Below, piece by piece: positions 1 through 22,580 of a stretch of 61,787 nt of DNA. Source of the DNA: Deltaproteobacteria bacterium. Lineage in GTDB: Bacteria; Myxococcota_A; Polyangia; Haliangiales; Haliangiaceae. A program made the translations under genes and the position numbers. A model generated the notes under the pieces. That model had not been told where the DNA came from. It saw only the letters and a program-made list of their open reading frames with translations, and did no database searches. The stretch spans positions 1-61,787 of the forward strand of contig JAFAOG010000040.1 of the NCBI GenBank assembly GCA_019237945.1, written 5' to 3'. Each line of letters starts with the position of its first letter. The stretch's first letter is position 1.

Positions 1-1395
1 ATCCTCCAGCTGCGCATCCCCGCCGATCTCGACACGCGCCACAAGCTCTCCGACTGCATCACCGACGCCGAGCGCCCGGTCGTGTTCATCGGCCCGTTCG
101 AGCACCACTCCAACGAGCTGCCGTGGCGCGAGTCGATCGCGGACGTCGTCGTGATCCACGAGGACGCCGATGGCCACGTCGATCTCGCGCACCTCGAAGC
201 CGAGCTCGTCAAGCACGCGGCGCGGCCGCTCAAGATCGGCAGCTTCTCGGCCGCGTCGAACGTCACTGGCATCGCGACCGATCAGATCGCGGTCGCCAAG
301 CTGCTCCATCAGCACGGTGCGCTCAGCTTCTGGGACTTCGCCGCGGCGGGCCCGTACGTCGACATCAAGGTCAACGAGGGCGACGGCGCGCACAAGGACG
401 CCGTGTTCATCTCGCCGCACAAGTTCATCGGCGGCCCCCAGACGCCGGGCGTGCTCGTCGTCAAGCGCCAGCTGCTGCGCAACACGGTGCCCGCGTGCCC
501 GGGCGGCGGCACGGTCGCGTACGTCAACCAGGAGGAGCACCGCTACGTCGTCGATCCGGTCGTGCGCGAGGAGGGCGGCACGCCCGCGATCATCGAGTCG
601 ATCCGCGCCGGGCTCGTGTTCCAGCTCAAGGAGGCGGTCGGCGCCGATGCGATCCGCGAGCGCGAGGTCGACTTCATCCAGCGCGCGATCGCGTCGTGGT
701 CGAAGAACGATCGCATCGCGATCCTCGGCAACAAGGCGGCGTGGCGGCTGTCGATCGTGTCGTTCATCGTGCGCCATCGCGAGGCGTACCTGCACCACAA
801 CTTCGTCGTCGCGCTGCTCAACGATCTGTTCGGGATCCAGTCGCGCGGCGGCTGCGGCTGCGCCGGCCCCTACGGCCACCGCTTGCTCGGCATCGACGTC
901 GAGACCAGCAAGGAATTCGAGCGCGAGATCGTGCGCGGCTGCGAGGGCATCAAGCCCGGCTGGGTCCGCGTCAACTTCAACTACTTCCTCAGCGAGACGC
1001 AGTTCCAGTTCATCCTCGACGCGATCCACCTGATCGCGAACGACGGCTGGCGCCTGCTGCCGCACTACAGCTTCAACCCCGATACCGGCGAGTGGCGCCA
1101 CCGCCGCGCGACGAACGCGAGCGTGATGCGGATGGCCGAGGTCAGCTACCGCACGGGCAAGATGGAGTACCGCTCGCGGCACGCGACCGAGCCGGAGTGG
1201 GCGCTTCCGGGCTATCTCGAGGACGCGCGCCGGATCATCGCGGCCGCGACCGACGAATTCCGCACGATGGAGCTCGAGGAGGCGCCGCGCACGCCCGACT
1301 TCGAGGAGCTGCGCTGGTTCCCGCTACCGAGCGAGGTGCTCGACGAGCTGCGCGGCAAGCCGACGGGCCGCCATGGCCGGCTATTTCGAACGTAG
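1..1395 (+). CDS. Aminotransferase class V-fold PLP-dependent enzyme (cysteine desulfurase-like), 5' end cut by the window edge
   Basis: Frame 1 is open from nt 1; track ORF 82..1395 is its Met-initiated part. The motif ISPHKFIGGPQTPGVLVV resembles the PLP-Lys region of class V aminotransferases. Strong G/C third-position bias. Confidence 0.8.
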   Translation: MLQLRIPADLDTRHKLSDCITDAERPVVFIGPFEHHSNELPWRESIADVVVIHEDADGHVDLAHLEAELVKHAARPLKIGSFSAASNVTGIATDQIAVAKLLHQHGALSFWDFAAAGPYVDIKVNEGDGAHKDAVFISPHKFIGGPQTPGVLVVKRQLLRNTVPACPGGGTVAYVNQEEHRYVVDPVVREEGGTPAIIESIRAGLVFQLKEAVGADAIREREVDFIQRAIASWSKNDRIAILGNKAAWRLSIVSFIVRHREAYLHHNFVVALLNDLFGIQSRGGCGCAGPYGHRLLGIDVETSKEFEREIVRGCEGIKPGWVRVNFNYFLSETQFQFILDAIHLIANDGWRLLPHYSFNPDTGEWRHRRATNASVMRMAEVSYRTGKMEYRSRHATEPEWALPGYLEDARRIIAAATDEFRTMELEEAPRTPDFEELRWFPLPSEVLDELRGKPTGRHGRLFRT

Positions 1396-1983
1396 CCGCA
1401 CGCCGAACAGCAGATCGAGATCGTAGCTCGTGTAGTCGAACGTGATCTCGTTCTTGCCGGCCTGCGCCTTGTGGTTGTGACCGCCGAACGGCAGCGCGAC
1501 CTCGCCGCCGATGTCGACATCGCCGAGGCTCCACCACACGCCGCCGCCGAGCTCGAACGCCCAGCCGACGTCGGTGTCGCTCGCGTGGAACGTCGTGCCG
1601 AGGATCGTCGTGTCGGCGCTCGCGTGCGCGATGTCGATGCCGCCCCCGGCGCGGCCCGCGACCGTCAGCTTCGGCGCGACCTGCTTCTCGAACAGCACGT
1701 GCGCCTGGATGCGGAAGCGGTGCGCGCCGACGTCGACCGCCTGGCTCTGGTAGTTGTACGAGATCGGCGTCCAGTCGGCCGTCACCATGCCGCCGACGTT
1801 CGATTCGCCGATCGCTCCGACGCGCGCGCCGAGCTTGGGGCTCGAGCCGACCTGGTCGCTCCAGCCGGAGTTGTCGGACTTGCTGTCGCCGAGCGGGATC
1901 ATGATGCCGCCGGTGGCGCCGAGGAAGCTGTCGGCGGCCGCGGGAGTGGCGGCGAGCAAGAGAAGGAGGGGCAGGCTACGCAT
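1381..1983 (-). CDS. Small outer-membrane beta-barrel (porin-family) protein
   Basis: Internal Met (residue 172) of ORF 1381..2496. Signal peptide MRSLPLLLLLAATPAAA. Alternating amphipathic strands (WAFELGGGVWW, FDYTSYDLDLLFGVRL). The N-terminal 171 aa of the long ORF look like Arg/Pro-rich shadow sequence. Confidence 0.7.
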   Translation of the reverse strand: MRSLPLLLLLAATPAAADSFLGATGGIMIPLGDSKSDNSGWSDQVGSSPKLGARVGAIGESNVGGMVTADWTPISYNYQSQAVDVGAHRFRIQAHVLFEKQVAPKLTVAGRAGGGIDIAHASADTTILGTTFHASDTDVGWAFELGGGVWWSLGDVDIGGEVALPFGGHNHKAQAGKNEITFDYTSYDLDLLFGVRLRSK

Positions 1984-2122
1984 GCGCGCGAGCGTATCCT
2001 CGGGTACTCGCGGTGTCACCCGCAGGCTAACAAGCCGCGAATCGGATTCCCGGTGATCTCGAATGGTTGGCCGTGGCACGAGGCGTGCTCTTGGGTCGGT
2101 CACCACCAAGGAGCATCCCACC

Positions 2123-2422
2123 ATGAAGACGATCGACACCAACCTCCTCGATACGGTCACCGGCGGCACGGGCTCGCTGCCGGTCTCGTCGACGCCGACG
2201 TCCGGCGGCACCAGCGACTCCAACAGCCAGGTGCTCTCGACGCTGCAGAACATCCAGAGCTCGCTCTCCGATCTCGGCAAGAACAACAACTCGTTGTTCG
2301 GCGGCCAGAACGGTGCGCTGCTGATGATGACGATGGCGTTCGCGTTCTCGCGCAACAACACCACGACCGTCGTGTACGGCGGCGGTGGCGGCTGGCACCA
2401 CTGGTGCCATCGCGGCTGGTAG
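2123..2422 (+). CDS. Double-glycine-leader bacteriocin/RiPP precursor-like peptide (99 aa), paralog of 13513..13782
   Basis: AAGGAG lies 10 nt upstream of the ATG. Leader is MKTIDTNLLDTVTGG, followed by a Ser/Thr-rich segment, the helix QVLSTLQNIQSSLSDLGKN, a Met-rich hydrophobic patch and a Gly5-WHHWCHRGW tail. Architecture matches the precursor next to the LanB/ABC locus. Confidence 0.6.
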   Translation: MKTIDTNLLDTVTGGTGSLPVSSTPTSGGTSDSNSQVLSTLQNIQSSLSDLGKNNNSLFGGQNGALLMMTMAFAFSRNNTTTVVYGGGGGWHHWCHRGW

Positions 2423-2431
2423 CATCGCCGC

Positions 2432-2878
2432 ATGGCGATGACGGATCGGATCGTGCCCCTGTGTGATCTCCTGCTCGGCGCGGCATACGCCGACAAGGAG
2501 CTGAAGGATCAGGAGCGCGACGAGGTCCGTGCGCTGCTCGAAGAGCTCGCCGGCGAGCTGCCGACCGAGGTCGAGCTGCGGCTATCGGGATTCGATCCGG
2601 CGACGTTCGATCTCGAGACGGCGGCCGCGCCGTTTCGCGGCGATACCGAGGACGAGCGCAAGAAGCTGCTGGTGCTCGTCAGCGCGGTCAACGAGTCCGA
2701 CGAGGAGATCGACTTCTCGGAGGACGACTACCTGCGCGATCTCGCGAAGGCACTCGGGCTGCCGAAGAAGGCGCTCGAGGGCCTGACGATGGAGATCGAG
2801 CAGGAAGAGGACGTCGACCTGACCGACCTGTTCGCGGAGGTCCGCAAGGGCCCGCCGCCGCCGCCGAAGAAGAAGTAG
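2432..2878 (+). CDS. TerB-family (tellurite-resistance-like) protein
   Basis: 148 aa and acidic. LLGAAYADKELKDQERDEV plus a second DEEIDFSEDDYL repeat, as in TerB-like domains. Good codon bias. Confidence 0.7.
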   Translation: MAMTDRIVPLCDLLLGAAYADKELKDQERDEVRALLEELAGELPTEVELRLSGFDPATFDLETAAAPFRGDTEDERKKLLVLVSAVNESDEEIDFSEDDYLRDLAKALGLPKKALEGLTMEIEQEEDVDLTDLFAEVRKGPPPPPKKK

Positions 2879-2884
2879 CGCGTC

Positions 2885-3529
<645 letters not shown>

Positions 3530-3643
3530 GGCCAATGGGGGTACCACGCCGCGCATTCCAGCCGGAGCTGCGTGCTGCCAACGGCCCATCGCAACCGGTG
3601 CGGCGTCGAGGCAGCGTCAGGTGTTCGCGACGTGCGCAGGCGA

Positions 3644-4942
3644 TTACGCGGCGCCGCGCTTCTCGACGAGCTCGATGCCGATGGTTCGCAGTAGCTCGCT
3701 CGGAGCACGCCCGCCGATCTGGATGATCACGGCATCGCAGGGCACGGTCTCGGTGCCTCGCGCGCCGCGCAAGATCACGCGATCACGATGAATCTCGGCG
3801 ACCTCGGTCCCGAGGTACGGCGTGATCTGACCGCTCCTGAACATCTTGTCGATCTTGTTGCGCACGAGGCCGCGCAACCGCCCGAGCTCGGTGCGCCGGT
3901 ACGACAGCGACACCGAGGCACAGTGCCCCTGCTCGACGAGCGCGATCGCGTTATCGGCCGCCGCGTTGCCTCCGCCGACGACGAGCACGTGCTTGTCCCG
4001 GTAGACCTGCGGCTCGAGCACCCGGTACGCGACCATCGGCAGCTCCTCGCCGGGAACGCCGAGCGTGTTCGGCGCGCCGCGCCGGCCGAGCGCGAGCACG
4101 ACGTTCGCCGCACGCTTGACCCAGCCGTTCGTGCCGACGACGCGCCACACGTTGCCCTCGGCGTGGATCGCCTCGACGCGCACGCCTTCCTCGATGTGGA
4201 GCTGCGTGCGCGCGCGGATGTCGCGCCACAGCTCGAGCAGCTGCTCCTTCGACATCGTCCTCTTGCGCACGGTGCCGTAGCCGGGCAGCTCGAAGCTGCC
4301 GGTCATGACGACCTTCGCGCGCGGGTAGTGCGCGATCGTGCCGCCCCACGCCGTCTGATCGACGACGAGCGTGCGGATGTTGTACGCCTCGAGCTGCAGC
4401 GCGGCGGCGGTGCCCGACGGACCGGAGCCGACGACGATCGCATCGTAGTCGCCGCCGCGCCGGCCTTCCTTGACGATCGCGGTCGCGGCCTGACGGCCCT
4501 GCTCGACGCAGTTGCGGATCAGGCCCATGCCCGACAGCTCGCCGACGACGTAGATGCCGCGCTGGCTCGTCTCGTAGTGCGGCGACAGCTTCGGCAGCTC
4601 CACACCGCGCGTCGCGGTGCCGTAGATCAGCTTGATCGCGCCGACCGGGCACGCCGACATGCACGCGGAGTGACCGACGCACGCGAGCGGGTTGATCAGG
4701 CGCGCGCGCCCGTCGGTGATCGCGAGGATGTCCTTCTCGGGACACGCGCGGATGCACGCGCCGGAGCCGATGCACTTGTCGAGATCGATCTCGGGGTGCA
4801 GCGTGATCGGGAAGATGTCATCGCCGAGCTGCTGCGCCTCCTCATGGCGCATCGCATTGCGCGCCTGGCGCTTCTTGTCCCAGTACGACCACGCCGCATA
4901 GGGAACGGCCGCGGCGAGGATCATCAAGACGACGACGTTCAT
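3644..4942 (-). CDS. Membrane-anchored 2x[4Fe-4S] ferredoxin / FAD-NAD(P)-binding oxidoreductase (thioredoxin-reductase-like)
   Basis: Start at MNVVVLMILAAAVPYAAW (TM anchor). Its ATG overlaps the stop of the upstream gene (ATGA at 4939-4942). Cys clusters CIGSGACIRACP and CVGHSACMSACP. Dinucleotide folds VVGSGPSGTAAA and VVGGGNAAADNA. Confidence 0.85.
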   Translation of the reverse strand: MNVVVLMILAAAVPYAAWSYWDKKRQARNAMRHEEAQQLGDDIFPITLHPEIDLDKCIGSGACIRACPEKDILAITDGRARLINPLACVGHSACMSACPVGAIKLIYGTATRGVELPKLSPHYETSQRGIYVVGELSGMGLIRNCVEQGRQAATAIVKEGRRGGDYDAIVVGSGPSGTAAALQLEAYNIRTLVVDQTAWGGTIAHYPRAKVVMTGSFELPGYGTVRKRTMSKEQLLELWRDIRARTQLHIEEGVRVEAIHAEGNVWRVVGTNGWVKRAANVVLALGRRGAPNTLGVPGEELPMVAYRVLEPQVYRDKHVLVVGGGNAAADNAIALVEQGHCASVSLSYRRTELGRLRGLVRNKIDKMFRSGQITPYLGTEVAEIHRDRVILRGARGTETVPCDAVIIQIGGRAPSELLRTIGIELVEKRGAA

Positions 4943-5304
4943 GGTGGAGTTGCCGGACCGTTTCCCGATGGGTGGCAGGACATGCAGAAGTCCGCGTTGA
5001 CCGGATCCCACGTGTAGCCGCTACCGGCGGATCCCGTGTGGATCGATGCCATGTCACCCATCGTGTGGCACGGGCCGCCGCACTGCGCGTGCACCGCGTT
5101 GAGACCCATGCCCTTCTTGAAGATGTGGCAGTCGGCGCAGTCGATGCCCATGTGGACGCCCGTCTTGATCGGGAACGCGTCCTCGGGATGGAGCAGCTTC
5201 TGCGTGTGGCAGTTCGTGCAGGAGCGCTCGGTGAACTCCACCTGCGACTGCGAGTGCGGCTCGGTGCACGCGGCGACGAGCGCGACGAGAACGAGCCACT
5301 TCAT
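4939..5304 (-). CDS. Small multihaem c-type cytochrome lipoprotein (121 aa)
   Basis: C-terminal part of ORF 4939..6051, from MKWLVLVALVAAC (lipobox). Motifs CTNCH, CADCH, CGGPCH and CMSCH. ATGA overlap with the upstream gene at 5301-5304. Confidence 0.8.
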   Translation of the reverse strand: MKWLVLVALVAACTEPHSQSQVEFTERSCTNCHTQKLLHPEDAFPIKTGVHMGIDCADCHIFKKGMGLNAVHAQCGGPCHTMGDMASIHTGSAGSGYTWDPVNADFCMSCHPSGNGPATPP

Positions 5305-6911
5305 GGCAGCGGCCTCCAGGCGAGCGTGGTGAGCAGTGCGAGCACGTCGCGATCCTGGCCTGTCGTGCCGAGCGCGTCGAGTGCGAAGTCGAACGCGGCC
5401 GACACGCTGTAGTGGAGGTCGAGCACGAGCGAGTGGATCACGAACGCCTCGCTCTGCGCCGCGTAGTCGAGACGCTCGGGGCGATACGTCACCGCGAGAT
5501 CGACGCGGCGGCTCGGCGACATCGCGAGGCCGAGATCGGCCGCTTCCCACGCCGAGAACGCGCTGTGACCGCCCGACACCGCGAGCACGGCGCGATGCGC
5601 ACGCGGTCCGAGCTCGCCGTGCACGTAGCCGGAGAAGTCCGTCTGTAGCGTGAGGCTCTGCGTCTGTCCGATCGAGCCGACCGCGTCGACGGCGTAGCCA
5701 TCGCCCGCGATCCCGCCCGACACCGTCGACGCGAGCCAGTAGTCGGCGCCGAGGCACGTCTCCGGCATCACGCCGGGCAACGCCTTCGTCGCGCACAGCC
5801 AGCTCTGCGGCAGCGCGGCCGCGAGGCGCAACGTGCGCTCGGGGCGCAGGAACGTGAAATCGAGGCCGACGTGGCTGCCGCGATGCCGCCACTCGCCCGA
5901 CGCGCCGGCGCCGGTGACGTCGATCGCGGGCGCGCCCCACGGGTTGTTCGCGTCGAACATCTGGACGTCGCCCCACGCGTTCAGGAACAGGGCGTCCTTC
6001 TGGGCGGCGGCGGCGATCGAGAGGATGCGCTCGTCGACCTGGCCGCCCCACGTCGAGCCGTGCGCATTGACGGCGAGATGCGGATGCCAGCCCGTGGGCG
6101 CGTCGTAGATCGCTTCCGCGCCGAAGCGCGAGGCGCTGGTGCCCGGCACGCCGCTGATCGGATCGGGCACGAGGCCGCCATACGCGGCGAGCTCGAGGTG
6201 ACCGGTGCGGAACGCGGCGCGGCCGCCGTCGAGCATGCCGACGCTCGTCGCGGCGTAGCGCAACCGGCCGAGCGCGATCGACGGATCCGCCGCATCACCC
6301 CAGCGCAGCGCGGCGGCGCGCACGAAGAACGGCACGCGCGAGCCCGAGTCGAAGCCGGTGCCGAACAGGCGAATGGCGGCGTCGACATCGGCGCCGAGCG
6401 CGCTGTCGGTGATCCGGTCGAAGCTGCCGACGATGCGCGCCTCGATCTGACCGCCCGAGCCGTCCTTGTCGAGGTTGCCGAACATGTGGCCGTAGACCGC
6501 GAGGTGATTGCTGCCGCGCGTCGCCGTCTCGCCGAGCGGGACCTCTTGGACCTGCTGCTGCGTCGCGGGCCGCACGGCCTCGGGCCACTGCTCCTTGAAC
6601 GCGTCGAGCGGCTTCGGCGCGGGGAGCTTCTCGCCCGGCGGGGCGCCCGGTTGCGTCGCTTGCGCCGAGGCGTCGGCGACTCCGGTCGTGCCGACCGGCA
6701 GCGACGCGTGCACCGCGCACGTCTTCTCGGTGCACTCGGCGATCGTGACGTCGCGCGCGCCGAAGCGCACGTGCATGCCCGCGCGCAGCCCGCTGACGGT
6801 GCCGCCGTCGATGTACGACGTGTCGCCCGCCGAGTCGATCACGCGCACGGTGATGCGATCCGCGAACGCCGCGTGCGCGACGAGCAACAGCAGCAGCGGC
6901 AGCTTCTTCAT
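5301..6911 (-). CDS. Putative outer-membrane beta-barrel protein of the cytochrome operon (536 aa)
   Basis: Met286 of ORF 5301..7766. Signal peptide MKKLPLLLLLVAHAAFA, a Pro-rich linker, then about 400 aa of alternating Gly/aromatic strand-like segments (LDFTFLRPE, VDLAVTYRPE, LVLDLHYSVSAAFDFAL). The barrel assignment is an inference. Confidence 0.7.
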   Translation of the reverse strand: MKKLPLLLLLVAHAAFADRITVRVIDSAGDTSYIDGGTVSGLRAGMHVRFGARDVTIAECTEKTCAVHASLPVGTTGVADASAQATQPGAPPGEKLPAPKPLDAFKEQWPEAVRPATQQQVQEVPLGETATRGSNHLAVYGHMFGNLDKDGSGGQIEARIVGSFDRITDSALGADVDAAIRLFGTGFDSGSRVPFFVRAAALRWGDAADPSIALGRLRYAATSVGMLDGGRAAFRTGHLELAAYGGLVPDPISGVPGTSASRFGAEAIYDAPTGWHPHLAVNAHGSTWGGQVDERILSIAAAAQKDALFLNAWGDVQMFDANNPWGAPAIDVTGAGASGEWRHRGSHVGLDFTFLRPERTLRLAAALPQSWLCATKALPGVMPETCLGADYWLASTVSGGIAGDGYAVDAVGSIGQTQSLTLQTDFSGYVHGELGPRAHRAVLAVSGGHSAFSAWEAADLGLAMSPSRRVDLAVTYRPERLDYAAQSEAFVIHSLVLDLHYSVSAAFDFALDALGTTGQDRDVLALLTTLAWRPLP

Positions 6912-7210
6912 CGGCGGATCCCCCGCGGATGACACGACAGGCACGCGCTCGCCGTCATCGCGACCGGCCGGCGGTGCTGCTTGCGGACGTCGCTGTGGCA
7001 GCCATCGCAGCGGACCATCTTCGGGCGCTGCCGATCGATGTGACAGTCGGCGCACGCGACGAGCTTGTGGCTGCCGGTCGACAGCGTGAACGACGTGTCG
7101 TGTGCGAGCGACTGCTGGATGCGCGGCATCACCTGCGTCGAGTCGGTGAACGCCTGGGAGAACGTCGTCGTGTTGTGGCACTGGCTGCACGTTCGCGGGA
7201 ACGGCGTCAT
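6908..7210 (-). CDS. C-terminal four-haem part of an interrupted decahaem cytochrome c (in frame with 7277..7729)
   Basis: Motifs CSQCH, CADCH, CDGCH and CLSCH. No signal peptide of its own. Same frame as 7277..7729, separated only by the TGA at 7277-7279 plus 22 sense codons. ATGA overlap with the barrel gene at 6908-6911. Confidence 0.6.
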   Translation of the reverse strand: MTPFPRTCSQCHNTTTFSQAFTDSTQVMPRIQQSLAHDTSFTLSTGSHKLVACADCHIDRQRPKMVRCDGCHSDVRKQHRRPVAMTASACLSCHPRGIRR

Positions 7211-7276
7211 GCTGCCTGACGGATCGGTGCCGTCGTGGTTGGGGTGCGTGTGCGGCGAGTGATAGTCCTTCGCGTG

Positions 7277-7729
7277 TCAGCCGTAGCAGTCGACGGGCAG
7301 GTCGCTGAACGTGCGCTCGGCCTGCCGCTTGTGGCACGCGTTGCACTCGACGATCGCGTGCGCACCGGTCAGCGGCATGCGCGTGCGGCGGTGCTGCTCG
7401 AGCTGCGCGACGTCGCTCCACGCGACCGCCGTGTGGCACTCGTAGCACTGGCCGTCCATGCGGCCCTGGTGCGGATCGCGGTGGCAGCCATCGCACGTCT
7501 CGCTGACCTGCGCGCCGTGGTGACACTCCTGACATCCGGTCTGCACGTGCTTGCCGCGCAGCGGGAACCCGGTCTTGTCGTGATCGAAGCCGGACTTCGC
7601 GGCGCCGCCGGCGAGCTTCCACGAGTCGCTCGTGTGGCACGCGCTGCAGTCGAGGCCCGCCGTGAGGCCGTCGTGCGCGTCGGCGAATGCCGTCGAGCAG
7701 AGGAGCAGGAGCACGAACAGCGCCTTCAC
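7277..7729 (-). CDS. N-terminal part of the decahaem cytochrome c (signal peptide + 5 CxxCH), ending at an in-frame TGA inside a sixth CxxCH
   Basis: Signal peptide MKALFVLLLLCSTAFA. Motifs CSACH, CQECH, CDGCH, CYECH and CNACH. Ends ...VDCYG-TGA-H. ATGA overlap with the upstream gene at 7726-7729. Confidence 0.75.
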   Translation of the reverse strand: MKALFVLLLLCSTAFADAHDGLTAGLDCSACHTSDSWKLAGGAAKSGFDHDKTGFPLRGKHVQTGCQECHHGAQVSETCDGCHRDPHQGRMDGQCYECHTAVAWSDVAQLEQHRRTRMPLTGAHAIVECNACHKRQAERTFSDLPVDCYG

Positions 7730-9522
7730 TTCGTCGGCCCCTTGTGCGGATCGGCGTGGCAGTCACGGCACGCGAAATAGCCGAGCCGGTAGCGCACGCT
7801 CTTGTCGCCGTTCTTCAGCTCCTCGGTCGGATGGCACTTCGCGCACTCGAGCGGCTTGTGCGCGCCCTCGAGCGGGTAGCGCGTCTTGTCGTGATCGAAC
7901 TTGTCGATCTTCCACTGCTCGACGGTGTGGCACGTCGTGCAGGCCTTCACCGGCTCGCTCGTGCGGAACTGCCCGGCGTGCATGTCCTCGTGGCAGCCCT
8001 CGCAGTCGCGCGGGATCCCGCGGAATGCAGCCGCCTCGGCGCCCTGCGCGACGTTGCCGTGACAGCCCGCGCAGCTCGCCCGCGCGTGGGCGCCGGTCAG
8101 CGGGAACGTCGAGTGATCGATCTTCGCCTGCTTCCATGCCATCGCCGTGTGGCAGTGCGCGCAGCCTCCGAGCTTCATCTCCTTGTCGAACTGCGTGCCG
8201 TGCGGGTTCTCGTGACACTCCGCGCACTGCTGCTTCGGCTGCTTCCACGTCAGCCGCGGGCGCGCGCCCGGGTGACAGCCGCTGCACGGAGTCGCCGCGT
8301 GCTTGCCGTCGAGCGTGTAGCCGGTCTGCACGTGCTGCGCGACGCCGAACGTCGTCGGCGTGAAGCCGCCGACCGAGTGGCACTGGTCGCAGGCGAAGCC
8401 CTTCATCTCGCCCTTGTGCTTGTCGGCGTGGCACGCCTCGCACGTGCCGAACGCGACCTTGCGATAGCGCGCGTCCGCGGGCTTGCTCGGCGCGTGACAC
8501 GCGGTGCACGCGGTCGTCTCGTGCTTGCCGGCGAGCGGATACTTCGTCTTGTCGTGCGACGAGCGGCCGATCGAGTCGGGCAGGCCGATCCACTTGATCG
8601 ACGCGTGACACGACTCGCATTTGTTGCCGAACGGCGCGTCGTGGACGTTCGGATGACACGCGACGCACGTCGAGCCCTTCGTCGGCGGCTTGTCGTTACC
8701 GCGGTCGTGACACGTCTTGCATCCGACCTTCGCGTGGCCATTCGCGAGCGAGACGACGGGATGCGCGCCGCCCTTGAGCGACGCCTCGCTCGCCTGCCAG
8801 CCCTTCGTGTCGTGACACTCGGCGCACGGCTTCGGCTTGAACGACGGGCGGTGCGGATCGGCGTGGCACTGATCGCACGTGTTGAACGCGAGCGGTTGCC
8901 ACTTCGGCGGCGCGCCGTGGCACTTGTCGCACACGACCGGTGCGTGCTGGCCGGTCAGCGGATAGCGCGTCAGGTTGTGATCGAACGTCCGCTGATCGAA
9001 CGCCTGCCACTTCGTGACGTTGTGGCACTTCTGGCAGGCCGCGGTGAACCGGCCCTTGTGCGGATCGGCGTGGCAGCTTCCGCAGGCGGTCGGCGTCTGC
9101 ACGAACTGCGGCTTGCCCTGCGGCGACTTCTTCGTGTGGCACTTGAGGCACGTCGGTGCGACGTGGCCACCCTCGAGCTTGTAGCCGGTCTCGTTGTGAT
9201 CGAGCTTCTCCATCGCGCCGCCCGGCCAGCGCGTCAGCTTCGCGCCGCGCCCGAGGTGATCGACGTGGCACTCCTCGCACGCCTTGCCCTTGTACGCGCG
9301 CCCGTGCAGGCCGCGCCCGCCGGCGATCTCGGCGCCGAGGTCCTTGTGGCAGTCGAGGCACAGGCGCGCGACGACCTGCTTGCCGGACTCGTGGCACTTG
9401 CTGCAGTCGTCGTCGCTGTCGATGTTCGCGTGCGCGCTCGCGAGCGGGCCGGGCGAGAGCAGCTGCGCGTGCGCGAAGCTCGGCCACGCGACCATCACCG
9501 CGAGCAGGACGATGTACTTCAC
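7726..9522 (-). CDS. Large periplasmic multihaem cytochrome c (about 598 aa; I count 23 CxxCH motifs)
   Basis: GTG start gives the signal peptide (M)KYIVLLAVMVAWPSFAHA and a GTGA overlap with the upstream gene. An alternative ATG lies at 9495. Reiterated modules F-D-H-x2-T-x-Y-P-L-x-G-x-H-x4-C-x2-C-H. The first 305 codons of ORF 7726..10437 are shadow sequence overlapping the real gene 9519..10355. Confidence 0.85.
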   Translation of the reverse strand: MKYIVLLAVMVAWPSFAHAQLLSPGPLASAHANIDSDDDCSKCHESGKQVVARLCLDCHKDLGAEIAGGRGLHGRAYKGKACEECHVDHLGRGAKLTRWPGGAMEKLDHNETGYKLEGGHVAPTCLKCHTKKSPQGKPQFVQTPTACGSCHADPHKGRFTAACQKCHNVTKWQAFDQRTFDHNLTRYPLTGQHAPVVCDKCHGAPPKWQPLAFNTCDQCHADPHRPSFKPKPCAECHDTKGWQASEASLKGGAHPVVSLANGHAKVGCKTCHDRGNDKPPTKGSTCVACHPNVHDAPFGNKCESCHASIKWIGLPDSIGRSSHDKTKYPLAGKHETTACTACHAPSKPADARYRKVAFGTCEACHADKHKGEMKGFACDQCHSVGGFTPTTFGVAQHVQTGYTLDGKHAATPCSGCHPGARPRLTWKQPKQQCAECHENPHGTQFDKEMKLGGCAHCHTAMAWKQAKIDHSTFPLTGAHARASCAGCHGNVAQGAEAAAFRGIPRDCEGCHEDMHAGQFRTSEPVKACTTCHTVEQWKIDKFDHDKTRYPLEGAHKPLECAKCHPTEELKNGDKSVRYRLGYFACRDCHADPHKGPTK

Positions 9523-10355
9523 GCAAAGATCCAGCGGTAGCCGTAGTGCCACGCGACGAGCGCGTGCAACAGCACCGCGATGATCATCAGCAGCGCGAAG
9601 AACCGGTGGAGGCCGCGCCACGTCCGAAGCAGCGCGCTGATCCCCTGCGCGCGAGCATCCGCTGCACTCGTCCGGTAGAGGTCGCGCTCCGCTCGCTTGA
9701 GCGGCTTCGTCATCTTGTGCGGCATCATCATCGCGAGCGCGACCCGGCGTGCTTTCGCGGCCGCGCGCCATTTCGGGATCGCGGCGACGGCCGTCAGGAG
9801 GTTTGCATTCGCGGCGACCGTCGGACCCGGTCGCTTCTGCATCGCGAGCACGAGGTCCTCGCGCATGCCGGGGAACTCGGTCTCGAACGCGTCGATCGCG
9901 GCGTCGAGGCGCTGCTGCGTGTTGCTCGGCGCGAGGAAGTGAAGCAGCCGGCCGAGCACGCCGGTCAAGACGACCATCGCGAGCGAGATCGTCGACGTCG
10001 TCGCGATCGGCGTGCGCAGCTGGAACGCCGAGTGGAACGACACCAGCGACGCGATCATCAGGCCCGTGAACACGTGGATGTCGAGCCACACCGCCATCGA
10101 GCCCCAGCGCGTGCCGCCGAGCCGTCGCCGCACGAGGTAGCCGAGGTTCAGGATGATCAGCAGCGCGGCGATCCAGCCGTAGCCGTTGCCGAGCATTCCG
10201 CTCGGGCGCAGCGTGCGGAAGTCGGGATGCTCCGGGCGATCTTGAACCGACATCCAGTAGAACGACCACCCGCGTGCCGCGAGGATGATCGTGGTGGCGA
10301 CGACGACGAGCGCGAGGCTCACCGTCAGCGCCGGACTTCTCCGGGTTGCAGACAT
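9519..10355 (-). CDS. Polytopic membrane protein, first gene of the cytochrome operon (possible b-type cytochrome/quinol-interacting subunit)
   Basis: 278 aa with at least 5 hydrophobic segments carrying His residues (WLDIHVFTGL, LVSFHSAF, RLLHFLAP, AVLLHALVAWHY). Good codon bias. Function is inferred from operon context only. Confidence 0.7.
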   Translation of the reverse strand: MSATRRSPALTVSLALVVVATTIILAARGWSFYWMSVQDRPEHPDFRTLRPSGMLGNGYGWIAALLIILNLGYLVRRRLGGTRWGSMAVWLDIHVFTGLMIASLVSFHSAFQLRTPIATTSTISLAMVVLTGVLGRLLHFLAPSNTQQRLDAAIDAFETEFPGMREDLVLAMQKRPGPTVAANANLLTAVAAIPKWRAAAKARRVALAMMMPHKMTKPLKRAERDLYRTSAADARAQGISALLRTWRGLHRFFALLMIIAVLLHALVAWHYGYRWIFA

Positions 10356-10739
10356 CTCCCGGCGCGGACGTTAAGCCCGCGTGAATCGAAAACGGAAGCG
10401 CACGACCCCTGTCATCGCACGACGAAACACTGTGCAAAGTGCGTACACCGAGACGCAGACTTCGAATTTGAAAATGAAATGCAGAGTCCCGTATGTCGGA
10501 TGTTTCGTACGATCAGCGTCTTGTACGTCTCGGGACAGTCAACGTCAGCAAGCTCACGGATCTTACGCGAACCTCAGCGCGAGTCATCGCCGATTCGCGC
10601 ACATCCGCGAACGACGGATCGCGCGGTTGGATCCTCTGTCGATGTCACGAAGGTTGGAGCACCAACAATTCTTACTCGTTGACGCCTACATCAGCGTGAG
10701 CCGAGCGTGAGCCCGATGATCACGGGGAGATCTATTTTT

Positions 10740-12302
10740 ATGCGTCTTCACCTGTTCGCTCCGCTGCTGTTCGTCGGTGCGTGCGCGACCGATCCGGCGA
10801 CCGATACCACCGAGCAAAACGCGTCCGTCACGCACGGCAAGGACGTGTGGTTCAAGAGCACGTTCGGCGGTGAAAAGCTCTTCAGCATCATCCTGCCGGG
10901 CCCGCCGTTCAACCTGACGCTCGGTCTGGATGCCGCGCTGACGTCGCCTCGCGACACGCGCTTCACGCAGTACGGTCTGATCAACGACCCGGACTGCGTG
11001 CAAGGTGACGCGTCGAGCGGCTACCTCGACAAGTGCGCCGATCCCGAGTCGGCGGGTGTCGTCGGCGTGCGCAAGAAGATCATCCTGACGGCGGGCGGAC
11101 CGAAGGTCCTCGTCGGCGTCGCGTGCGCCGCGTGTCACGCGGGTCTCGATGCGGCGAACCCGCCGGCGGATCCGAATCACCCGACGTGGGCGAACATTCA
11201 CGCGACGACGGGCAACCAGTACATCCAGATCGGCAAGCTGTTCGGCGCGCATCTGTCGCCGCACGATCCGCGCAAGCAGGTCTTCGATACGTGGGCGCCG
11301 GGCACCGTCGACACGACGGCGATCGAGTCCGACGGCGTCAACAACCCGGGCATCATCACCCAGTTCTTCAACACGCCCGAGCGCCCGTACTTCGACCTGA
11401 CCGACAACGGTCTCGCGATCCACGTGCACCGCGGCGGTCAGGGCGGCGAGGACGACGCGGGCTGCGAGAAGGCGGCGCTGCGCGTCTACTTCAACATCGG
11501 CATGTGCGCGGCCGAGTGCATGGTCCCGCACCTCGCGAACGGCCCGGGCGGCACGCAGACGCCGATCGACGACGCGGAGTGCAGCTCGCGCTGCCCCGAC
11601 TACGTGCAGGCGAAGGCCGACGTCGTCGACGAGTGCGCGTTCATGGCGACCAACACGCCGCCCGCGCTGCCGGCGAGCTACATCGATCAGGGCAAGGCGA
11701 ACCACGGCCGCGAGGTGTTCCGGAAGAACTGCGCGGGCTGCCACAACAACGGCGAGAAGCTCCAGGACGACACGATCCTCTCGGATGACCTGATCCATCC
11801 CGCGGCGGAGATCGGCACGAACTCGTGTCGCTCGAAGTCGACGAACTGGACCGCGGGTCACATCTGGGCCGAGTTCTCGTCGGATCAGTACAAGGCGCGC
11901 CCGACCGGCGGCCCGGGCTTCTACCGCGACGTCCCGCTGACGGCCGTGTGGGCGACCGCGCCGTTCTTCCACAACAACCGCCTCGGTACGTACAACGGTG
12001 ACCCGTCGATCAATGGCCGTCTCGCCGCGTACTACGACGCGATGGATCAGCTGCTGAACCCGTGGAAGCGCGACCTGCTGGGCTCGATCCTGCGCACGAG
12101 CGACTGGATCCAGATCCCGACGCCGCTCGGCCCGGCGACGCTGCCGGCCGGCACGCCGGTCGCGCTGTTCGCCAACGCGAATCCGGCGAACCCGCTCGAG
12201 AACCGCTGCCCGGACCTCGTCGAGAACGAGGGCCACTACTACGGCGCCTTGCTCTCCGACAAGGACAAGGAATCGCTCGTCGAGTTCCTGAAGACGAAGT
12301 AA
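10740..12302 (+). CDS. Di-haem cytochrome c peroxidase-like lipoprotein
   Basis: Met12 of ORF 10707..12302. Lipobox LLFVGAC. Two CxxCH motifs (CAACH, CAGCH). APFFHNNRLG resembles the distal-haem region of the CCP/MauG family. Confidence 0.75.
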   Translation: MRLHLFAPLLFVGACATDPATDTTEQNASVTHGKDVWFKSTFGGEKLFSIILPGPPFNLTLGLDAALTSPRDTRFTQYGLINDPDCVQGDASSGYLDKCADPESAGVVGVRKKIILTAGGPKVLVGVACAACHAGLDAANPPADPNHPTWANIHATTGNQYIQIGKLFGAHLSPHDPRKQVFDTWAPGTVDTTAIESDGVNNPGIITQFFNTPERPYFDLTDNGLAIHVHRGGQGGEDDAGCEKAALRVYFNIGMCAAECMVPHLANGPGGTQTPIDDAECSSRCPDYVQAKADVVDECAFMATNTPPALPASYIDQGKANHGREVFRKNCAGCHNNGEKLQDDTILSDDLIHPAAEIGTNSCRSKSTNWTAGHIWAEFSSDQYKARPTGGPGFYRDVPLTAVWATAPFFHNNRLGTYNGDPSINGRLAAYYDAMDQLLNPWKRDLLGSILRTSDWIQIPTPLGPATLPAGTPVALFANANPANPLENRCPDLVENEGHYYGALLSDKDKESLVEFLKTK

Positions 12303-12308
12303 CGAGCT

Positions 12309-12749
12309 CTACGCGAGCTTCGCCGTCATCGAGATCGGCGTCGCCGAGAGCGCCTTGGAGACGGGACAGCCCTTCTTCGCGTTCTCGGCGAACGTCTGGA
12401 ACTGCTCGGCGGTGACACCCGGTACCTTGCCGGTGAGCTCGAGGTGGATGCCGGTGATCGTCCAGCCGGCTTCCTGCTTCTCGATCGAGACCGTCGCATC
12501 GGTGCGCAGCTCGGTCGGCTCGTGCCCGGCGTTCGTCAGCTGGGCGCTGAGCGCCATCGTGAAGCAGCCAGCGTGGGCCGCCGCGATCAGCTCCTCGGGG
12601 TTCGTGCCGGCCTTGCCGTCCTCGCTCTGAAAGCGCGTGTTGACGCTGTACGGCTGGTCCTTGAACGCGCCGCTCTGCATCGAGATCTTGCCGCTACCCT
12701 TGGTGAGGCCGCCGTTCCACACGGCGGTGCTGCTTCGCTTGAGTGCCAT
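12309..12749 (-). CDS. osmC: OsmC-family peroxiredoxin
   Basis: MALKRSSTAVWNGGLTKGSGKIS..., with NPEELIAAAHAGCFTMAL and KGCPVSKAL, the two conserved OsmC Cys motifs. Confidence 0.9.
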   Translation of the reverse strand: MALKRSSTAVWNGGLTKGSGKISMQSGAFKDQPYSVNTRFQSEDGKAGTNPEELIAAAHAGCFTMALSAQLTNAGHEPTELRTDATVSIEKQEAGWTITGIHLELTGKVPGVTAEQFQTFAENAKKGCPVSKALSATPISMTAKLA

Positions 12750-12807
12750 AGGTGTTCCTCCGGGCGCGGGTATATCGCACCCGGTCCGGAGCACCTAGCG
12801 ACCTTGG

Positions 12808-13395
12808 CTAGCCAGCGCGCAGCTCGTGCTTTCCGTTGTTGCCGATCGTCTCGACCGTCGACGCCTGCGGGCCTTCGTTGCCCTGCTCCTCGGCGAAGCG
12901 GACCTCATCGCCGACCTCGAGGCCGTCCATCTTGCCCCCGAGCACGCTGTTGCGATGGAAGTAAACGCGGCGGCCGTCGTCGGGCTCGATCCAGCCCCAC
13001 TCCTTCTCGACGTCGAGGAACGTGACGACGCCATGCAGCCGATCGCCGCCGTTGTGCGACTTGACGTCGCGACGCAGGCGGACGCGCACCGCGTCCTCGA
13101 GCTGGCGCTTCGCGGCCTGGAACGCATCGCGCAGCGCGACGTAGACGTCCTCGTGCGCACCGTCCGGACCCGGATCGTGGCTCGACACGACCTCGCCGCC
13201 TGGAATCGTCAGGCGGACCGTGATGCTGAACGCATTGCCCTTGCGATGCCGGTGATGCGGCTGGCCGATGATGACCTCGCAGCGCGTGATGCGATCGTAG
13301 ACGCGTTCGAGCTTGTCCACCCACTCGCGGCAGCGAGTCTCGACGGCGTCACTGTGCTCGATATCCCGGAACGTGATCTCGACAGGAATCTGCAT
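12808..13395 (-). CDS. HPF/RaiA-type ribosome-associated domain fused to a cold-shock (CSD/OB) domain
   Basis: Start at MQIPVEITFRDIEHSDAVE (typical HPF N-terminus). C-terminal part GVVTFLDVEKEWGWIEPDDGRRVYFHRNSV...VGDEVRFAEEQG is CspA-like. Confidence 0.8.
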   Translation of the reverse strand: MQIPVEITFRDIEHSDAVETRCREWVDKLERVYDRITRCEVIIGQPHHRHRKGNAFSITVRLTIPGGEVVSSHDPGPDGAHEDVYVALRDAFQAAKRQLEDAVRVRLRRDVKSHNGGDRLHGVVTFLDVEKEWGWIEPDDGRRVYFHRNSVLGGKMDGLEVGDEVRFAEEQGNEGPQASTVETIGNNGKHELRAG

Positions 13396-13512
13396 GATTC
13401 TCTGTGACTGCATCGCTCGCGCCATTGCGCTCACAGTAGGCACGCGGAGTTGTGCGCAAACACCGCGTGGCGGTTGCGCACGGTCCGCAGTCGACGCGCG
13501 CTAGGAAGTTCT

Positions 13513-13782
13513 CTACGCGACGCGGACCCAGCCGTCACCGGGAGGCGGCTCGGGAGCTGCCTGAACCGGTGCCTGCTCGCGCTGGTGCATCATCATCATC
13601 ATCGGAAGCAGCATCATCATCGGATTTTGGTTGCTCTGGCTCGCGTTCTTCGCGAGGTCCTGAATCGACGACATCAGCTGCGTCAGCATCTGCGTGACCG
13701 CATCGTCCGAGCTCGCACCGCCGGTGACGGCGGCCAGCTGGCCCGGATCGATCGTGGGAATCTCGTCCTTGGTGTTCGACAT
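13513..13782 (-). CDS. Double-glycine-leader precursor peptide (89 aa), Cys-free, Ser/Thr- and Met-rich
   Basis: Met45 of ORF 13513..13914. Leader MSNTKDEIPTIDPGQLAAVTGG. Core ASSDDAVTQMLTQLMSSIQDLAKNASQSNQNPMMMLLPMMMMMHQ... Divergent from the NAT/exporter/LanB operon, with a 140-nt spacer. Confidence 0.65.
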   Translation of the reverse strand: MSNTKDEIPTIDPGQLAAVTGGASSDDAVTQMLTQLMSSIQDLAKNASQSNQNPMMMLLPMMMMMHQREQAPVQAAPEPPPGDGWVRVA

Positions 13783-13922
13783 GGCTACCGCCTTTGGTGG
13801 ATGCGCAGCCGTCACCACAGCAGCGGACGTGCCACGCCGCTCTCGCCGTGCTTCCGCGCGCTTGCGCGGTTCGGGCGAGGGTGGGGACCCCGGTTCGTCT
13901 ACCGCGGGTAACATCGCCGCGG

Positions 13923-14669
13923 ATGGACTACTTCGAGCGCATCGGGCTCGAGCGGCCGCGCGAGCCGACGTTCGCGGCGCTCTCGGCGATCGTCGGGAAT
14001 CACGTCCGCGCGATCCCGTTCGAGAACCTCGACGTCCTGCTCGGCCGCCCGCCGCGCCTCGATCTCGAGTCGCTGCGCCAAAAGCTCGTCGCGTCGCGCC
14101 GCGGCGGCTACTGCTACGAGCACGCGACGCTGTGCGCCGCCGAGCTCGAGGCTATCGGCTTCGCGGTGCGGCGTCACAGCGCGCGCGTCGTCATGGTCAC
14201 GCCGCGGGACAAGGCGCCTCGCACGCACATGTTCCTGACCGCGATGAACCACGTCCTCGATCCGGGGTTCGGCGGGCTCGCGCCGCACGCACCGGTGCCG
14301 CTCGATGGCACGCCGGTCGGCCATCACCGCGTCGTGCGCGAGGGCACCGAGCTCGCGCTCTATCACGGCGACCAGCGGCTGTGGGTGTCGTCGCTCGAGG
14401 CCGACCTGCCCGTCGACTTCGAGATGGCGAACCACTTCACCGCGACGTGGCCGCAGTCGCCGTTCGTGCAGCGGCTGATGCTGCGCGCGTTCACGCCGGA
14501 GGGCCGGATCACGGCGATGAACCGCGATGTGACCATCGTGCGGGGCGGCGAGACATCGACGCGCCAGCTCGCCGACCGTGCCGAGCTGCAGCGCCTGCTC
14601 TACGATGTGTTCGCAATCGACTGCGACATCTCGCAGCTCCGGGTTCCGACGATTCCCGAGTGGGGGTAG
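13923..14669 (+). CDS. Arylamine N-acetyltransferase (NAT family)
   Basis: MDYFERIGL..., IPFENLDVLLG, and RRGGYCYEHATL (catalytic Cys motif RGGxCxE). Lies 21 nt upstream of the next gene. Confidence 0.9.
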   Translation: MDYFERIGLERPREPTFAALSAIVGNHVRAIPFENLDVLLGRPPRLDLESLRQKLVASRRGGYCYEHATLCAAELEAIGFAVRRHSARVVMVTPRDKAPRTHMFLTAMNHVLDPGFGGLAPHAPVPLDGTPVGHHRVVREGTELALYHGDQRLWVSSLEADLPVDFEMANHFTATWPQSPFVQRLMLRAFTPEGRITAMNRDVTIVRGGETSTRQLADRAELQRLLYDVFAIDCDISQLRVPTIPEWG

Positions 14670-14690
14670 CTCGGGATATGATGCGGCGTC

Positions 14691-16438
14691 ATGGGCACGG
14701 TCGCCGTGGTGTGCTCGGATCACTCCGTCGAGGACTGGGTGTTTCGTGCGCTCGATGGCGCGCTCGTGATCGTCGATGTCGCGCCTGCGGACGTCATGGT
14801 GATCACCGAGGACTGCCTCGAGGCGATCGTCGCGCACGTGCCGCCGGAGAGCTCGGTCGTCGTGCTCGGCGAGCCGACGCGGACGTACTCGCGCGCGGAC
14901 TTCGTGATCACGCGCAGCTGGCGCGAGCACGACCTCCAGCGCCTGCTCGTCGCGCTCGCGAATCACAAGCCGCTGGCGCTGCCGCCGCTCGGTACGCCCG
15001 AGAATCCGGCGGAGGCCCGCGATGCGCAGCGCGCGTTGCTCGCGACGCGCAAGATGTCGACCGCGACGGACCTCGCGAGCACGGAGGCGATGACGGTCGA
15101 GAACGTCGTCGAGCTCGTCGATGCCGATCGTGCGTACTGCCTGTACTACGACGCCGAGAGCGCGGCGCTGTGGTCGGAATCTCGCCGCGGCGGCGAACCG
15201 ATGTCCGCGATCGTCGGAATGGCGGCGTTCGCGGCGAGGACCGGGCATCCGGCCGTCGCGCCGAAGGTCGGGGAGGATCCGCGGTTCTTCGGCGCCATCG
15301 ACGATCCGCAGGCCGACGAGGGCGATCACACCCTCGCGCAGCCGATCCTCGGCGCGGATGGTCTCGTGCACGCGGTCGTCGTCGTGTCGCGACGTGTGAA
15401 CCGGCCGTTCTTTCGGGATGCCGAGGTTCGCCTGCTCGCGCGGTTCGCGCAGCTCGCGGCACCGGTGCTCGATCAGCTGTCGATCCACGTCCATAGCGAG
15501 GCGCTGCTCGAGGAAGAGGCGGCCGAGAATCCGGTGTTCCGGCGCGCCGCGATCCAGGCGGCATCGGCGCCGACCTGGGGCGATGTCGTGCGCGTGTCGC
15601 CGAGCTGGATCACGTGGGCGTACTGGGTGCTCGTCGCGGTGCTCGTCGCCGCCGGCGTGTTCACGTTCGTCGGGCGCGTGTCGACGTATTCCGCGGGTCC
15701 GGCGATCGTGCGGTCGACGGCGCGCACGCCGATCGCAGCGCGCAACGGTGGGATCGTCGTCGCGCTCGACGTGTCGCCGGGCGATCGCGTAGCCGCGGGC
15801 GCTCCGATCGCGCGTCTCGACGACAGCGAGCAGCGTGCGGCCGTCGATCACCTGCAGCGCGAGCTCGAGACGCAGCTGCGCGCGCACATGCTCGATCCGG
15901 GCGACCTCGCGGCCGACAGCGCGCTGCGGACGATCCGGCACGACCTCGACGGTGCGAAGACGGCGCTCGACGAGCGCGTGATCCATGCGCCGGTCGCGGG
16001 CGTGATCGGCGACGTGCGCGCGCGGTCGAGCCAGCGACTCGAGCCCGGTGACGTGATCGCGACCGTCGTCGATAGCAACGAGGCGCTCGAGGTGATCGCG
16101 CTCTTGCCCGGCGAGGATCGCCCGCAGCTCGCGCCGGGGATGACGGTGCGGCTCGAGCTCGCCGGCTATCGGTATGCGTATCAATCGTTCGCGATCGAGA
16201 ACGTGTCGCAGGACGTGATCGCGCCGGCCGAGGCGAAGCGCGTGCTCGGCGCCGAGGTTGCCGATGGCCTGGCGCTGCCGGGACCGGTCGTGATCGTGCG
16301 CGGCAAGCTCGCGAAGCCGGAGTTCGTCGTCGACGGACGCACGCTGCGGTACCACGACGGCATGGTCGGCACCGCCGAGGTGCGCGTGCGCTCGGAGCCG
16401 ATCGTGTACGCGCTCGTGCCGGGCACGCGGAGGTTTCA

Positions 16439-16442
<4 letters not shown>
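14691..16442 (+). CDS. Cytoplasmic pseudo-receiver + GAF domain fused through one TM helix to a HlyD-family secretion adaptor
   Basis: GAF-like region (DRAYCLYYD..., GMAAFAARTGHPAVAPKVGEDPRF, LAQPILGADGLVHAVVVVSRR). TM helix WAYWVLVAVLVAAGVFTFV. HlyD hairpins (GIVVALDVSPGDRVAAGAPIARLDD, IHAPVAGVIGDVRA). Confidence 0.85.
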
Positions 16443-18678
<2,236 letters not shown>

Positions 18679-18682
<4 letters not shown>

Positions 18683-19533
18683 AGCGCCTGCTGCTGGTGC
18701 TGATCGCGGCGTGCGGAGTCGATCGCGGTCCCGCGCCTGCGCCCGCGCCGGCCCCGGCTCCGGTCAAGCCGGCGACGCGCGATGCGGCCGCCGCGCCCGA
18801 GGAATTCGTCGGCGTGCTCGCCGCCGCGCAGTCGGTCGACATCGCGCCGCGCGCGGCCGGGGTCGTGATGAAGCTCGATGTCGCGACGGGCGACGCCGTG
18901 ACGATGGGGCAGGTCGTGGCCGAGATGGATCCGGTCGGCCTGCAGGAGGAGCTGCGCGCCGCCGAGGCCGCGCTCGGAGCCGCGACGGCCGCGCATCGCC
19001 AGGCGATCGTCGACGTCGAGGATGCCAAGCGCAAGGTCGCGCTCGAGACGCAGGCGGTCGCCGATGGCGTGAGCGCGCGCAGCGTCCTCGAGGAGGCGAA
19101 GTTCGCGGTCAAGCGCGCGGAGGCCGCGGAGCAGAAGGCGGCCGCGACGCAGGCGGCGGAGGCTTCGCGCGCCCAGACCGCACGCGATCACGTCGGCGAT
19201 ACGCAGCTGCGCGCGCCGTTCGACGGCACGGTCGCGCAGCGCTTCCACGATGCCGGCAACCGGATCGAGGCCGGCGGCGCGATCCTGCGGATCGTCGGCA
19301 ACGGCGGCATGCGGCTGCGGTTCGCGGTGCCGCCCGATCGCGCGCACGCGCTGGCGCTCGGCGCGAAGGTCATGGCGACGATCGATACGGTCGCGGCGCC
19401 CGTGGCGGCGACGATCAAGCAGATCTCGCCGACGATCGACGCCGCATCGGGCATGGTGATCGTCGAGGCGGAGCTCGCCGATGGCGGCGGCGGTGCATTG
19501 CGGCCCGGTCTCGCTGCGCGGGTGAAGCCGTGA
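18679..19533 (+). CDS. Periplasmic adaptor (HlyD/RND MFP-type) lipoprotein
   Basis: Tail of ORF 16585..19533 starting at a GTG (GTGA overlap). Lipobox LIAAC, PAPAPAPAP linker, coiled-coil Ala/Glu region, then LRAPFDGTVAQRF. Confidence 0.8.
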
Positions 19534-22500: not shown

Positions 22501-22580
22501 GCCGCCAGGAGCTCGTGATCTACGACCTATTGCGGCGCCACTACGACGGCGTGATCGCACGCCAGCGAGCGAAGAAATGA
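19530..22580 (+). CDS. Full-length LanB-type lantibiotic dehydratase family protein (N-terminal glutamylation + C-terminal elimination/SpaB_C-like domains)
   Basis: GTG start (GTGA overlap). FVLRSPVLPL, the FRATPFGLFSGV motif, and the C-terminal RWFFLRYADPDDHVRLRFHG motif typical of the thiopeptide/lanthipeptide dehydratase C-terminal domain. 1016 aa. Confidence 0.9.
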   Translation: MSAKKPATTEPARTHKLAERFVLRSPVLPLAALEHLDVRALLADPGVREALFIASPELTTALEAGSTDPGVLRAAVRYLSRMAFRATPFGLFSGVVTGTFAATSELRLAPRTEHDRHTRLDNDYLAKLCDAIAADPAMRGELTFGPTSSLYRVGDKYRYAAGKLIREVREYHLVAIDATPYLDAVIERARAGATLDQLAAVLASDPELTREEIDGYLGELVAVQLLVPTLQPRVTGPEPATVLRGMLDAMPSARGFASVLGDVSARLAAIDEAHGAAPETYRAIAAALEPLPAKVSIARLFQVDVTLRAPVVTLGPRVAAEITRAFELTRKLVPARNDEAWRKFREQFNTRYETREVPLVEVLDEESGIGFGTPSGDTAQAPLIRDLPFPAMAAGDRTFTAREATLLRLVGESRGATELVLSDADVAALAHDPGPLADTVTFTVRIAAASREALDRGDVTIDSNGFTSASATRLLGRFCHGSREVHAFVDELVAREHALAGDAILAEIVHLPEGRLGNILLRPVLREYEIPYMGTSGARADKQIPITDLLVSVHGSRVVLRSRRLGREVRPQLATAHNYGLRSLAIYRFLCAHASQHTEGGQWSWGALESLPFLPRVRHGKVLLARATWSVRKPDLEKLTDPASARALRDRRGLPRWIVVADGDNELPVDFDNDASLDAFVQIVRSREATQLVEMHPAPDQLIVDGADGKHTHEIVVAFVREQPAPQRPVDVRPVTVERRFPPGSRWLYAKLYAGTATLDALLREAIAPLVREAIATGIADRWFFLRYADPDDHVRLRFHGDPARLAELLPRLAELPVRRLVLDTYEREVERYGGDRGIELAEHIFAADSEAVLTIVEHTRGDEGADVRWKLAVLGLDLMARDLGLDVPARLALATRVRDGFAAEHGVDTAFQKRLGDKFRAHATELAALLATRLDDPDHDYAPGLEAFAARSAAIAPLAAEMRAHVSSVDDVLASLWHMHVNRMLPSMQRRQELVIYDLLRRHYDGVIARQRAKK

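Follow-up and report, generated by a model that had tools for sequence, protein, structure and literature searches.

The window, by which we mean the whole 61,787-bp stretch of DNA that was analysed, carries on its minus strand a cluster of six genes (3644-10355) that are linked to one another by 4-base ATGA or GTGA overlaps. The third gene of this cluster encodes a decahaem c-type cytochrome and is interrupted by an in-frame TGA, and the two pieces on either side of the stop were deposited as separate proteins. The features of the cluster, from its first gene to its last and with the parts of the decahaem gene given below the gene itself, are the following.

9519 to 10355, minus strand: integral membrane protein of 278 aa, first gene of the cluster, with a weak match to DUF4405; linked at its stop by an overlap to the start of the 23-haem gene.
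7726 to 9522, minus strand: upstream cytochrome of 598 aa, carrying 23 CxxCH motifs; linked to the start of the decahaem gene through a GTGA overlap (7729-7726) at its stop.
6908 to 7729, minus strand: full gene for a decahaem c-type cytochrome, 273 codons and a stop, with a GTG start, ten CxxCH positions and the signal peptide MKALFVLLLLCSTAFA.
7277 to 7729, minus strand: annotated N-terminal fragment of 150 aa that contains the signal peptide and five intact haem motifs; deposited as a protein of its own.
7277 to 7279 (the TGA reading 7279-7277), minus strand: in-frame TGA, codon 151 of 273, at the second cysteine of haem motif 6 (CYG-TGA-H).
6908 to 7210, minus strand: annotated C-terminal fragment of 100 aa, beginning at an internal ATG; it has four haem motifs, lacks a signal peptide and was likewise deposited as a protein of its own.
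5301 to 6911, minus strand: secreted protein of 536 aa; its ATG overlaps the stop of the decahaem gene as ATGA (6911-6908).
4939 to 5304, minus strand: putative lipoprotein cytochrome of 121 aa with the lipobox LVAAC, three CxxCH motifs and one CGGPCH; joined by an ATGA overlap to the stop of the preceding gene.
3644 to 4942, minus strand: ferredoxin (two 4Fe-4S clusters) fused to an FAD/NAD(P) pyridine-nucleotide-disulfide oxidoreductase, last gene of the cluster; its ATG, probably the one at 4942, overlaps the stop of the gene before it.

Around the stop the minus strand reads GTC GAC TGC TAC GGC TGA CAC GCG AAG GAC TAT CAC, which translates to V D C Y G stop H A K D Y H. The open reading frames at 7277-7729 and 6908-7210 lie in one frame, with the TGA and 22 sense codons (7276-7211) between them, and reading through the TGA gives 273 codons with ten CxxCH positions, the first five being intact, the sixth broken by the stop and the last four following it. 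The first-pass annotation of this DNA had claimed the minus-strand reading with the TGA at 7279-7277, the common frame of the two reading frames, a read-through protein of 273 aa with ten haem motifs and the stop at the second cysteine of the sixth, and overlap coupling at both ends of the gene. All of this was borne out by the sequence and its translation, by the positions of the motifs and by the GTGA and ATGA overlaps at the 5' and 3' ends, respectively. Its further claim that the downstream fragment lacks a signal peptide also holds, by inspection: the fragment starts MTPFPRTCSQCH and has no hydrophobic leader. The full-length protein carries an N-terminal hydrophobic leader ending in AFA, likewise by inspection. 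Both cytochrome fragments occur in the protein collection solely on the source contig of 61,787 bp.

Judged by its sequence, the read-through product is a multihaem c-type cytochrome of the cytochrome c3/c7 superfamily. It scored above the Pfam thresholds for the cytochrome c7, c3 and class III families, with 40.5 bits for PF14522 (cut-off 24.8), 29.8 bits for PF14537 (cut-off 25) and 24.8 bits for PF02085 (cut-off 22.9). A search of solved structures with the family profile returned a single and marginal match, to a nonahaem cytochrome (E = 0.009), and hence no direct structural homologue, and the NCBIfam scan of the read-through protein gave solely a sub-threshold match to HmcA (25 bits vs a cut-off of 400).

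The same gene was found intact in other assemblies of the same strain. Three contigs, obtained from ENA and JGI (L001 and L003, 1646 nt, identical to each other) and from an independent Logan assembly of SRR8113284 (L002, 1442 nt), agree with positions 6144-7789 of the window, over 1.4-1.6 kb, in all bases but 7277. At this base the window has T on the plus strand and thus A on the coding strand, while the other contigs have T on the coding strand, so that codon 151 is TGT and encodes cysteine; no other letter distinguishes the window from them. The intact gene was also found at the protein level, where the 90% cluster includes P0128 (JGI) and P0130 (Logan and ENA), both of 273 aa and both with cysteine at position 151. 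P0130 equals the read-through protein with Cys151 at every residue, and P0128 does so save that its GTG start codon is written as V.

Public sequencing runs were queried with a 106-base sequence and six sampled index words around the TGA site. The best indexed runs were X1, a root metagenome, and X5, a rhizosphere sample with a different study code, each holding five of the six words. No indexed public run contains all six, and none contains the word spanning the TGA version; these runs were read as assembler contigs, which drop rare variants. The contigs of X1 over window 1-20000 represent the same population at roughly 5x depth and, away from contig ends, differ from the window solely at 7277 (T>A). 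A 242-nt contig of X5 covering 7107-7348 shows the same single difference. Small differences between runs were observed elsewhere in the window, and the population is therefore not clonal. The strain occurs in the runs X1-X6, which come from root, rhizosphere and rock. The Logan contigs of X2, X3, X4 and X6 begin within 7317-7358 and one X5 contig ends there. This breakpoint stretch adjoins the coding stretch for an invariant QHRRTRMPLTG, and the breaks are likely due to graph branching where related strains share words; they account for the lack, in most runs, of a contig that covers the TGA. A further member of the 90% cluster, P0129 (251 aa, from a Logan contig), consists of the first approximately 200 residues of the decahaem cytochrome followed by the C-terminal approximately 50 residues of the 278-aa membrane protein, and reflects either a chimeric contig or a deletion or rearrangement.

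Homologues of the read-through protein number more than 600, nearly all of them full length, at about 260-400 aa. Their sources are metagenomes of soil, rhizosphere and sediment and, where named, Kofleriaceae, Haliangiales or Myxococcales MAGs. In the homologues aligned with the window protein the stop column is cysteine in 19 of 19 (CY[GAS]CH), and it is an invariant cysteine in a second alignment of 15 sequences. As gene callers would split any selenocysteine gene, the codon itself was read from DNA at 127 loci, of which 44 lie in species-representative genomes, 80 in metagenomes and three on the contigs of the same strain. Opposite residue 151, 87 of the 127 loci have TGC, 40 have TGT and none has TGA, and no internal stop occurred in the best alignments of these loci. 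The orthologue comparison that the first-pass annotation had proposed for this codon thus returned a cysteine codon everywhere. Distant relatives in five runs (X7, X26, X46, X48 and X62) have A or G at 7277, corresponding to TGT or TGC, and never T. The closest species-representative locus, L004, belongs to a different species with 88% protein identity. In one homologue from ENA (P0002, 82% identical) it is haem motif 2 that is altered, to AFTECH, by replacement of the first cysteine with phenylalanine. P0002 lies in a cluster of four member sequences, and the change is either natural, giving a haem site with a single cysteine, or a further sequence error affecting a haem cysteine.

Three readings of the TGA had been offered at the outset: a single-base change of TGC or TGT to TGA, by nonsense mutation or by sequencing error; selenocysteine; and programmed read-through. 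The same-strain TGT and the 127 loci with TGC or TGT speak for the first of these. The other two were not upheld, given that no homologue has TGA, no structure follows the UGA and the flanks equal those of the cysteine-coding copies.

Folding of the RNA 3' of the TGA, a check also put forward in the first-pass annotation, came out against a SECIS element. The 55 nt from the UGA onward fold at -5.9 kcal/mol vs a mean of -7.5 for shuffled sequences (z = +0.72), and an 86-nt stretch at the UGA gave z = +0.19, so that no hairpin or SECIS stem-loop was found by folding in either stretch. An Rfam scan of the region downstream of the UGA gave no SECIS or other relevant match even at E <= 10. In the 61.8-kb window no tRNA was found, tRNA-Sec included, and no SelA, SelB or SelD domain was recognised by Pfam among the roughly 45 of its ORFs that were scanned. 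As the flanks of the TGA are letter-for-letter those of the cysteine-coding copies, no recoding signal could have evolved at this site.

These results bear directly on the reading in which the TGA is a real allele of a selenocysteine-competent Kofleriaceae strain, decoded as selenocysteine, with haem c bound at a CxxUH site through a selenoether in place of a thioether. What speaks for it is that the UGA falls exactly at a cysteine position, as expected of the Sec/Cys pairs in real selenoprotein families, and that multihaem selenoproteins exist, namely MccSep/ExtKL, the GSU2204 family and the octahaem tetrathionate-reductase family. MccSep (ExtKL) of Geobacter sulfurreducens has five ordinary CxxCH motifs with its catalytic selenocysteine outside them; its UGA belongs to a Sec/Cys pair conserved across many genomes, a SECIS-like hairpin lies within 30 nt of it and insertion of selenocysteine has been shown by mass spectrometry (PMC13510729). 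A 2026 review lists two more selenoprotein families associated with multihaem proteins, with no haem motif of the CxxU type given for either (PMC13188914). The window gene resembles MccSep/ExtKL in encoding a periplasmic multihaem c-type cytochrome that an in-frame UGA splits in annotation, but differs from it in having no conserved UGA, no hairpin and no match to the family models, the read-through protein having given none to either the ExtKL or the GSU2204 model (NCBIfam NF040886 and NF041027). A CxxUH haem-attachment site would be new, as none is described in either publication (PMC13510729, PMC13188914). With TGA at none of the related loci and TGT in identical flanks in the same strain, selenocysteine was rejected, and we consider both its insertion here and the attachment of haem through it to be extremely improbable.

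In bacteria, termination is weak at a UGA that has C as its next base, and the codon context here is UGA-C. The downstream frame is moreover open throughout and identical to that of the intact gene. Both points would fit a real stop that is bypassed by programmed or leaky read-through, in which a near-cognate tRNA adds tryptophan or cysteine and some full-length protein is made. An open downstream frame is, however, expected of any very recent or artefactual change and is not evidence of selection, and a tryptophan at position 151 would leave the haem singly attached. As no relative has a stop here and no stimulatory structure is present, programmed read-through was rejected; UGA-C permits incidental leakiness only, and any background leakiness would be incidental and not programmed. 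We regard this explanation as very unlikely.

The deposited proteins could also be taken at face value, as two products, one secreted and with five haems, the other made from the internal ATG at 7210 and with four. Both pieces are indeed ORFs with start codons and were annotated as proteins. The second, however, has no signal peptide by inspection and so would receive no haem in the periplasm, the homologues are never split and the 22 codons that lie between the pieces are identical to those of the intact gene. A functional division into two proteins was accordingly rejected, and the chance that it exists appears vanishingly small.

The explanation that we hold with high confidence is that of an ordinary decahaem gene with a private TGT-to-TGA letter, being a consensus error or a rare nonsense allele, with no recoding involved. 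The single-base difference, the absence of the TGA elsewhere, the cysteine in the relatives and the lack of a recoding signal are direct observations. According to this explanation, the gene is an ordinary conserved decahaem c-type cytochrome gene of a bacterium of the Kofleriaceae (Myxococcota) that is present in metagenomes of root and rock, codon 151 is normally TGT and its cysteine provides the second thiol of haem motif 6. In the source contig the third base of this codon is A in place of T (7277), turning TGT into TGA, and the stop is a wrong consensus letter or a rare nonsense allele caught by the assembler and is not recoded. The case agrees with premature stops that arise by single-base substitution in metagenome-assembled genomes: one base differs, the frame is intact, the relatives are full length and there is no recoding signal.

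That both samples covering the site in the same strain give T on the coding strand speaks for a consensus error or a minority allele. A real allele is favoured by the fact that genuine single-nucleotide variants occur far more often than errors in a consensus, and by the differences between runs in a population that is not clonal. What speaks against the preferred explanation is the presence of the TGA in the deposited contig, with both fragments deposited as proteins. If the allele were present in cells, the product would stop at 150 residues, a stub with five haems, and the remaining four would be lost for want of an export signal on the C-terminal piece. The next gene, which encodes the 536-aa protein, would probably lose its translational coupling as well, disabling that copy of the cluster.

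The position of the stop at a haem cysteine is unremarkable, as this is often what a random nonsense change looks like in a cysteine-rich gene of high GC content. The decahaem protein has 21 cysteines in 273 residues, and TGA is the sole stop one step from TGT or TGC. The intact gene offers 75 single-base substitutions that would give a stop; 20 of these (27%) affect a cysteine of a CxxCH motif, which makes the location of the TGA unsurprising, and 10 (13%) affect a second cysteine. An in-frame TGA at a cysteine codon in such a gene is a common false lead for selenocysteine. As a recoding event the TGA has no importance, since the gene is otherwise normal and carries a blemish of one letter or a rare null allele, and the deposited fragments of 150 and 100 aa are to be read as one decahaem cytochrome of 273 aa.

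The cluster in which the gene lies is more interesting than the stop codon and may deserve attention in its own right. Its gene order is kept in approximately 25 Kofleriaceae, Haliangiales and Myxococcales MAGs and is conserved across soil Kofleriaceae and Haliangiales. The gene that follows the decahaem gene encodes the secreted 536-aa protein, which matched no Pfam or NCBIfam family, MtrB/PioB included; an NCBIfam scan of the neighbouring cluster proteins likewise gave nothing. The family of the 536-aa protein comprised 153 scored matches at E <= 0.001, and the 120 matches listed were all unnamed or labelled "hypothetical protein" and had no Pfam or NCBIfam domain. C373 and C386 are invariant in this family. 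An AlphaFold model of the protein, built with 39 homologues (pLDDT 79, pTM 0.60), consists of a small beta domain at the N terminus, then a disordered linker, then a predicted outer-membrane beta-barrel of about 22 strands, and its fold resembles those of porins, ushers and TonB-dependent receptors.

Decahaem or other cytochromes combine with porins into modules for outer-membrane electron transfer in MtrA-MtrB of Shewanella, in MtoAB and PioAB, and in the porin-cytochrome complexes of Geobacter. The window is laid out in a similar manner, in that immediately after the gene for a secreted ten-haem protein, and translationally coupled to it, comes one that encodes a large predicted outer-membrane barrel, as in MtrAB, MtoAB and PioAB, the likeness being one of layout. 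The gene for the putative lipoprotein cytochrome comes next after the barrel gene, which was counted as a further likeness to porin-cytochrome modules. The decahaem protein, however, gave no significant sequence match to MtrA, and no MtrA chain was among the matches to solved structures. The MtrC/MtrF-like outer-membrane domain family PF22113 reached 26 bits against the cytochrome, below the 30-bit cut-off. The window barrel also differs from MtrB/PioB in being smaller, with its roughly 22 predicted strands in 536 aa, and in matching no family. No sequence homology of the cluster to Mtr or Pio proteins was detectable by Pfam, NCBIfam or solved structures, and for lack of detectable homology to MtrAB, MtoAB and PioAB we describe the cluster as one that may work like a porin-cytochrome conduit and not as a member of that family. 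It would thus resemble such a conduit in its layout while standing outside the Mtr/Pio family, and we propose the six genes as a candidate extracellular electron-transfer system in Myxococcota.

Two further loci of the window were observed outside the cluster. On the minus strand, a single ORF of 230 aa at 12808-13500 joins, in an unusual fusion, the domain of a ribosome hibernation factor (Ribosomal_S30AE) and a cold-shock domain. On the plus strand, positions 14682-22580 hold a lanthipeptide-type cluster encoding a GAF domain-containing protein of the HlyD family, an ABC transporter that carries a C39 peptidase domain and a large dehydratase of the LanB type, the latter matching both Lant_dehydr_N (E = 3e-154) and Lant_dehydr_C.
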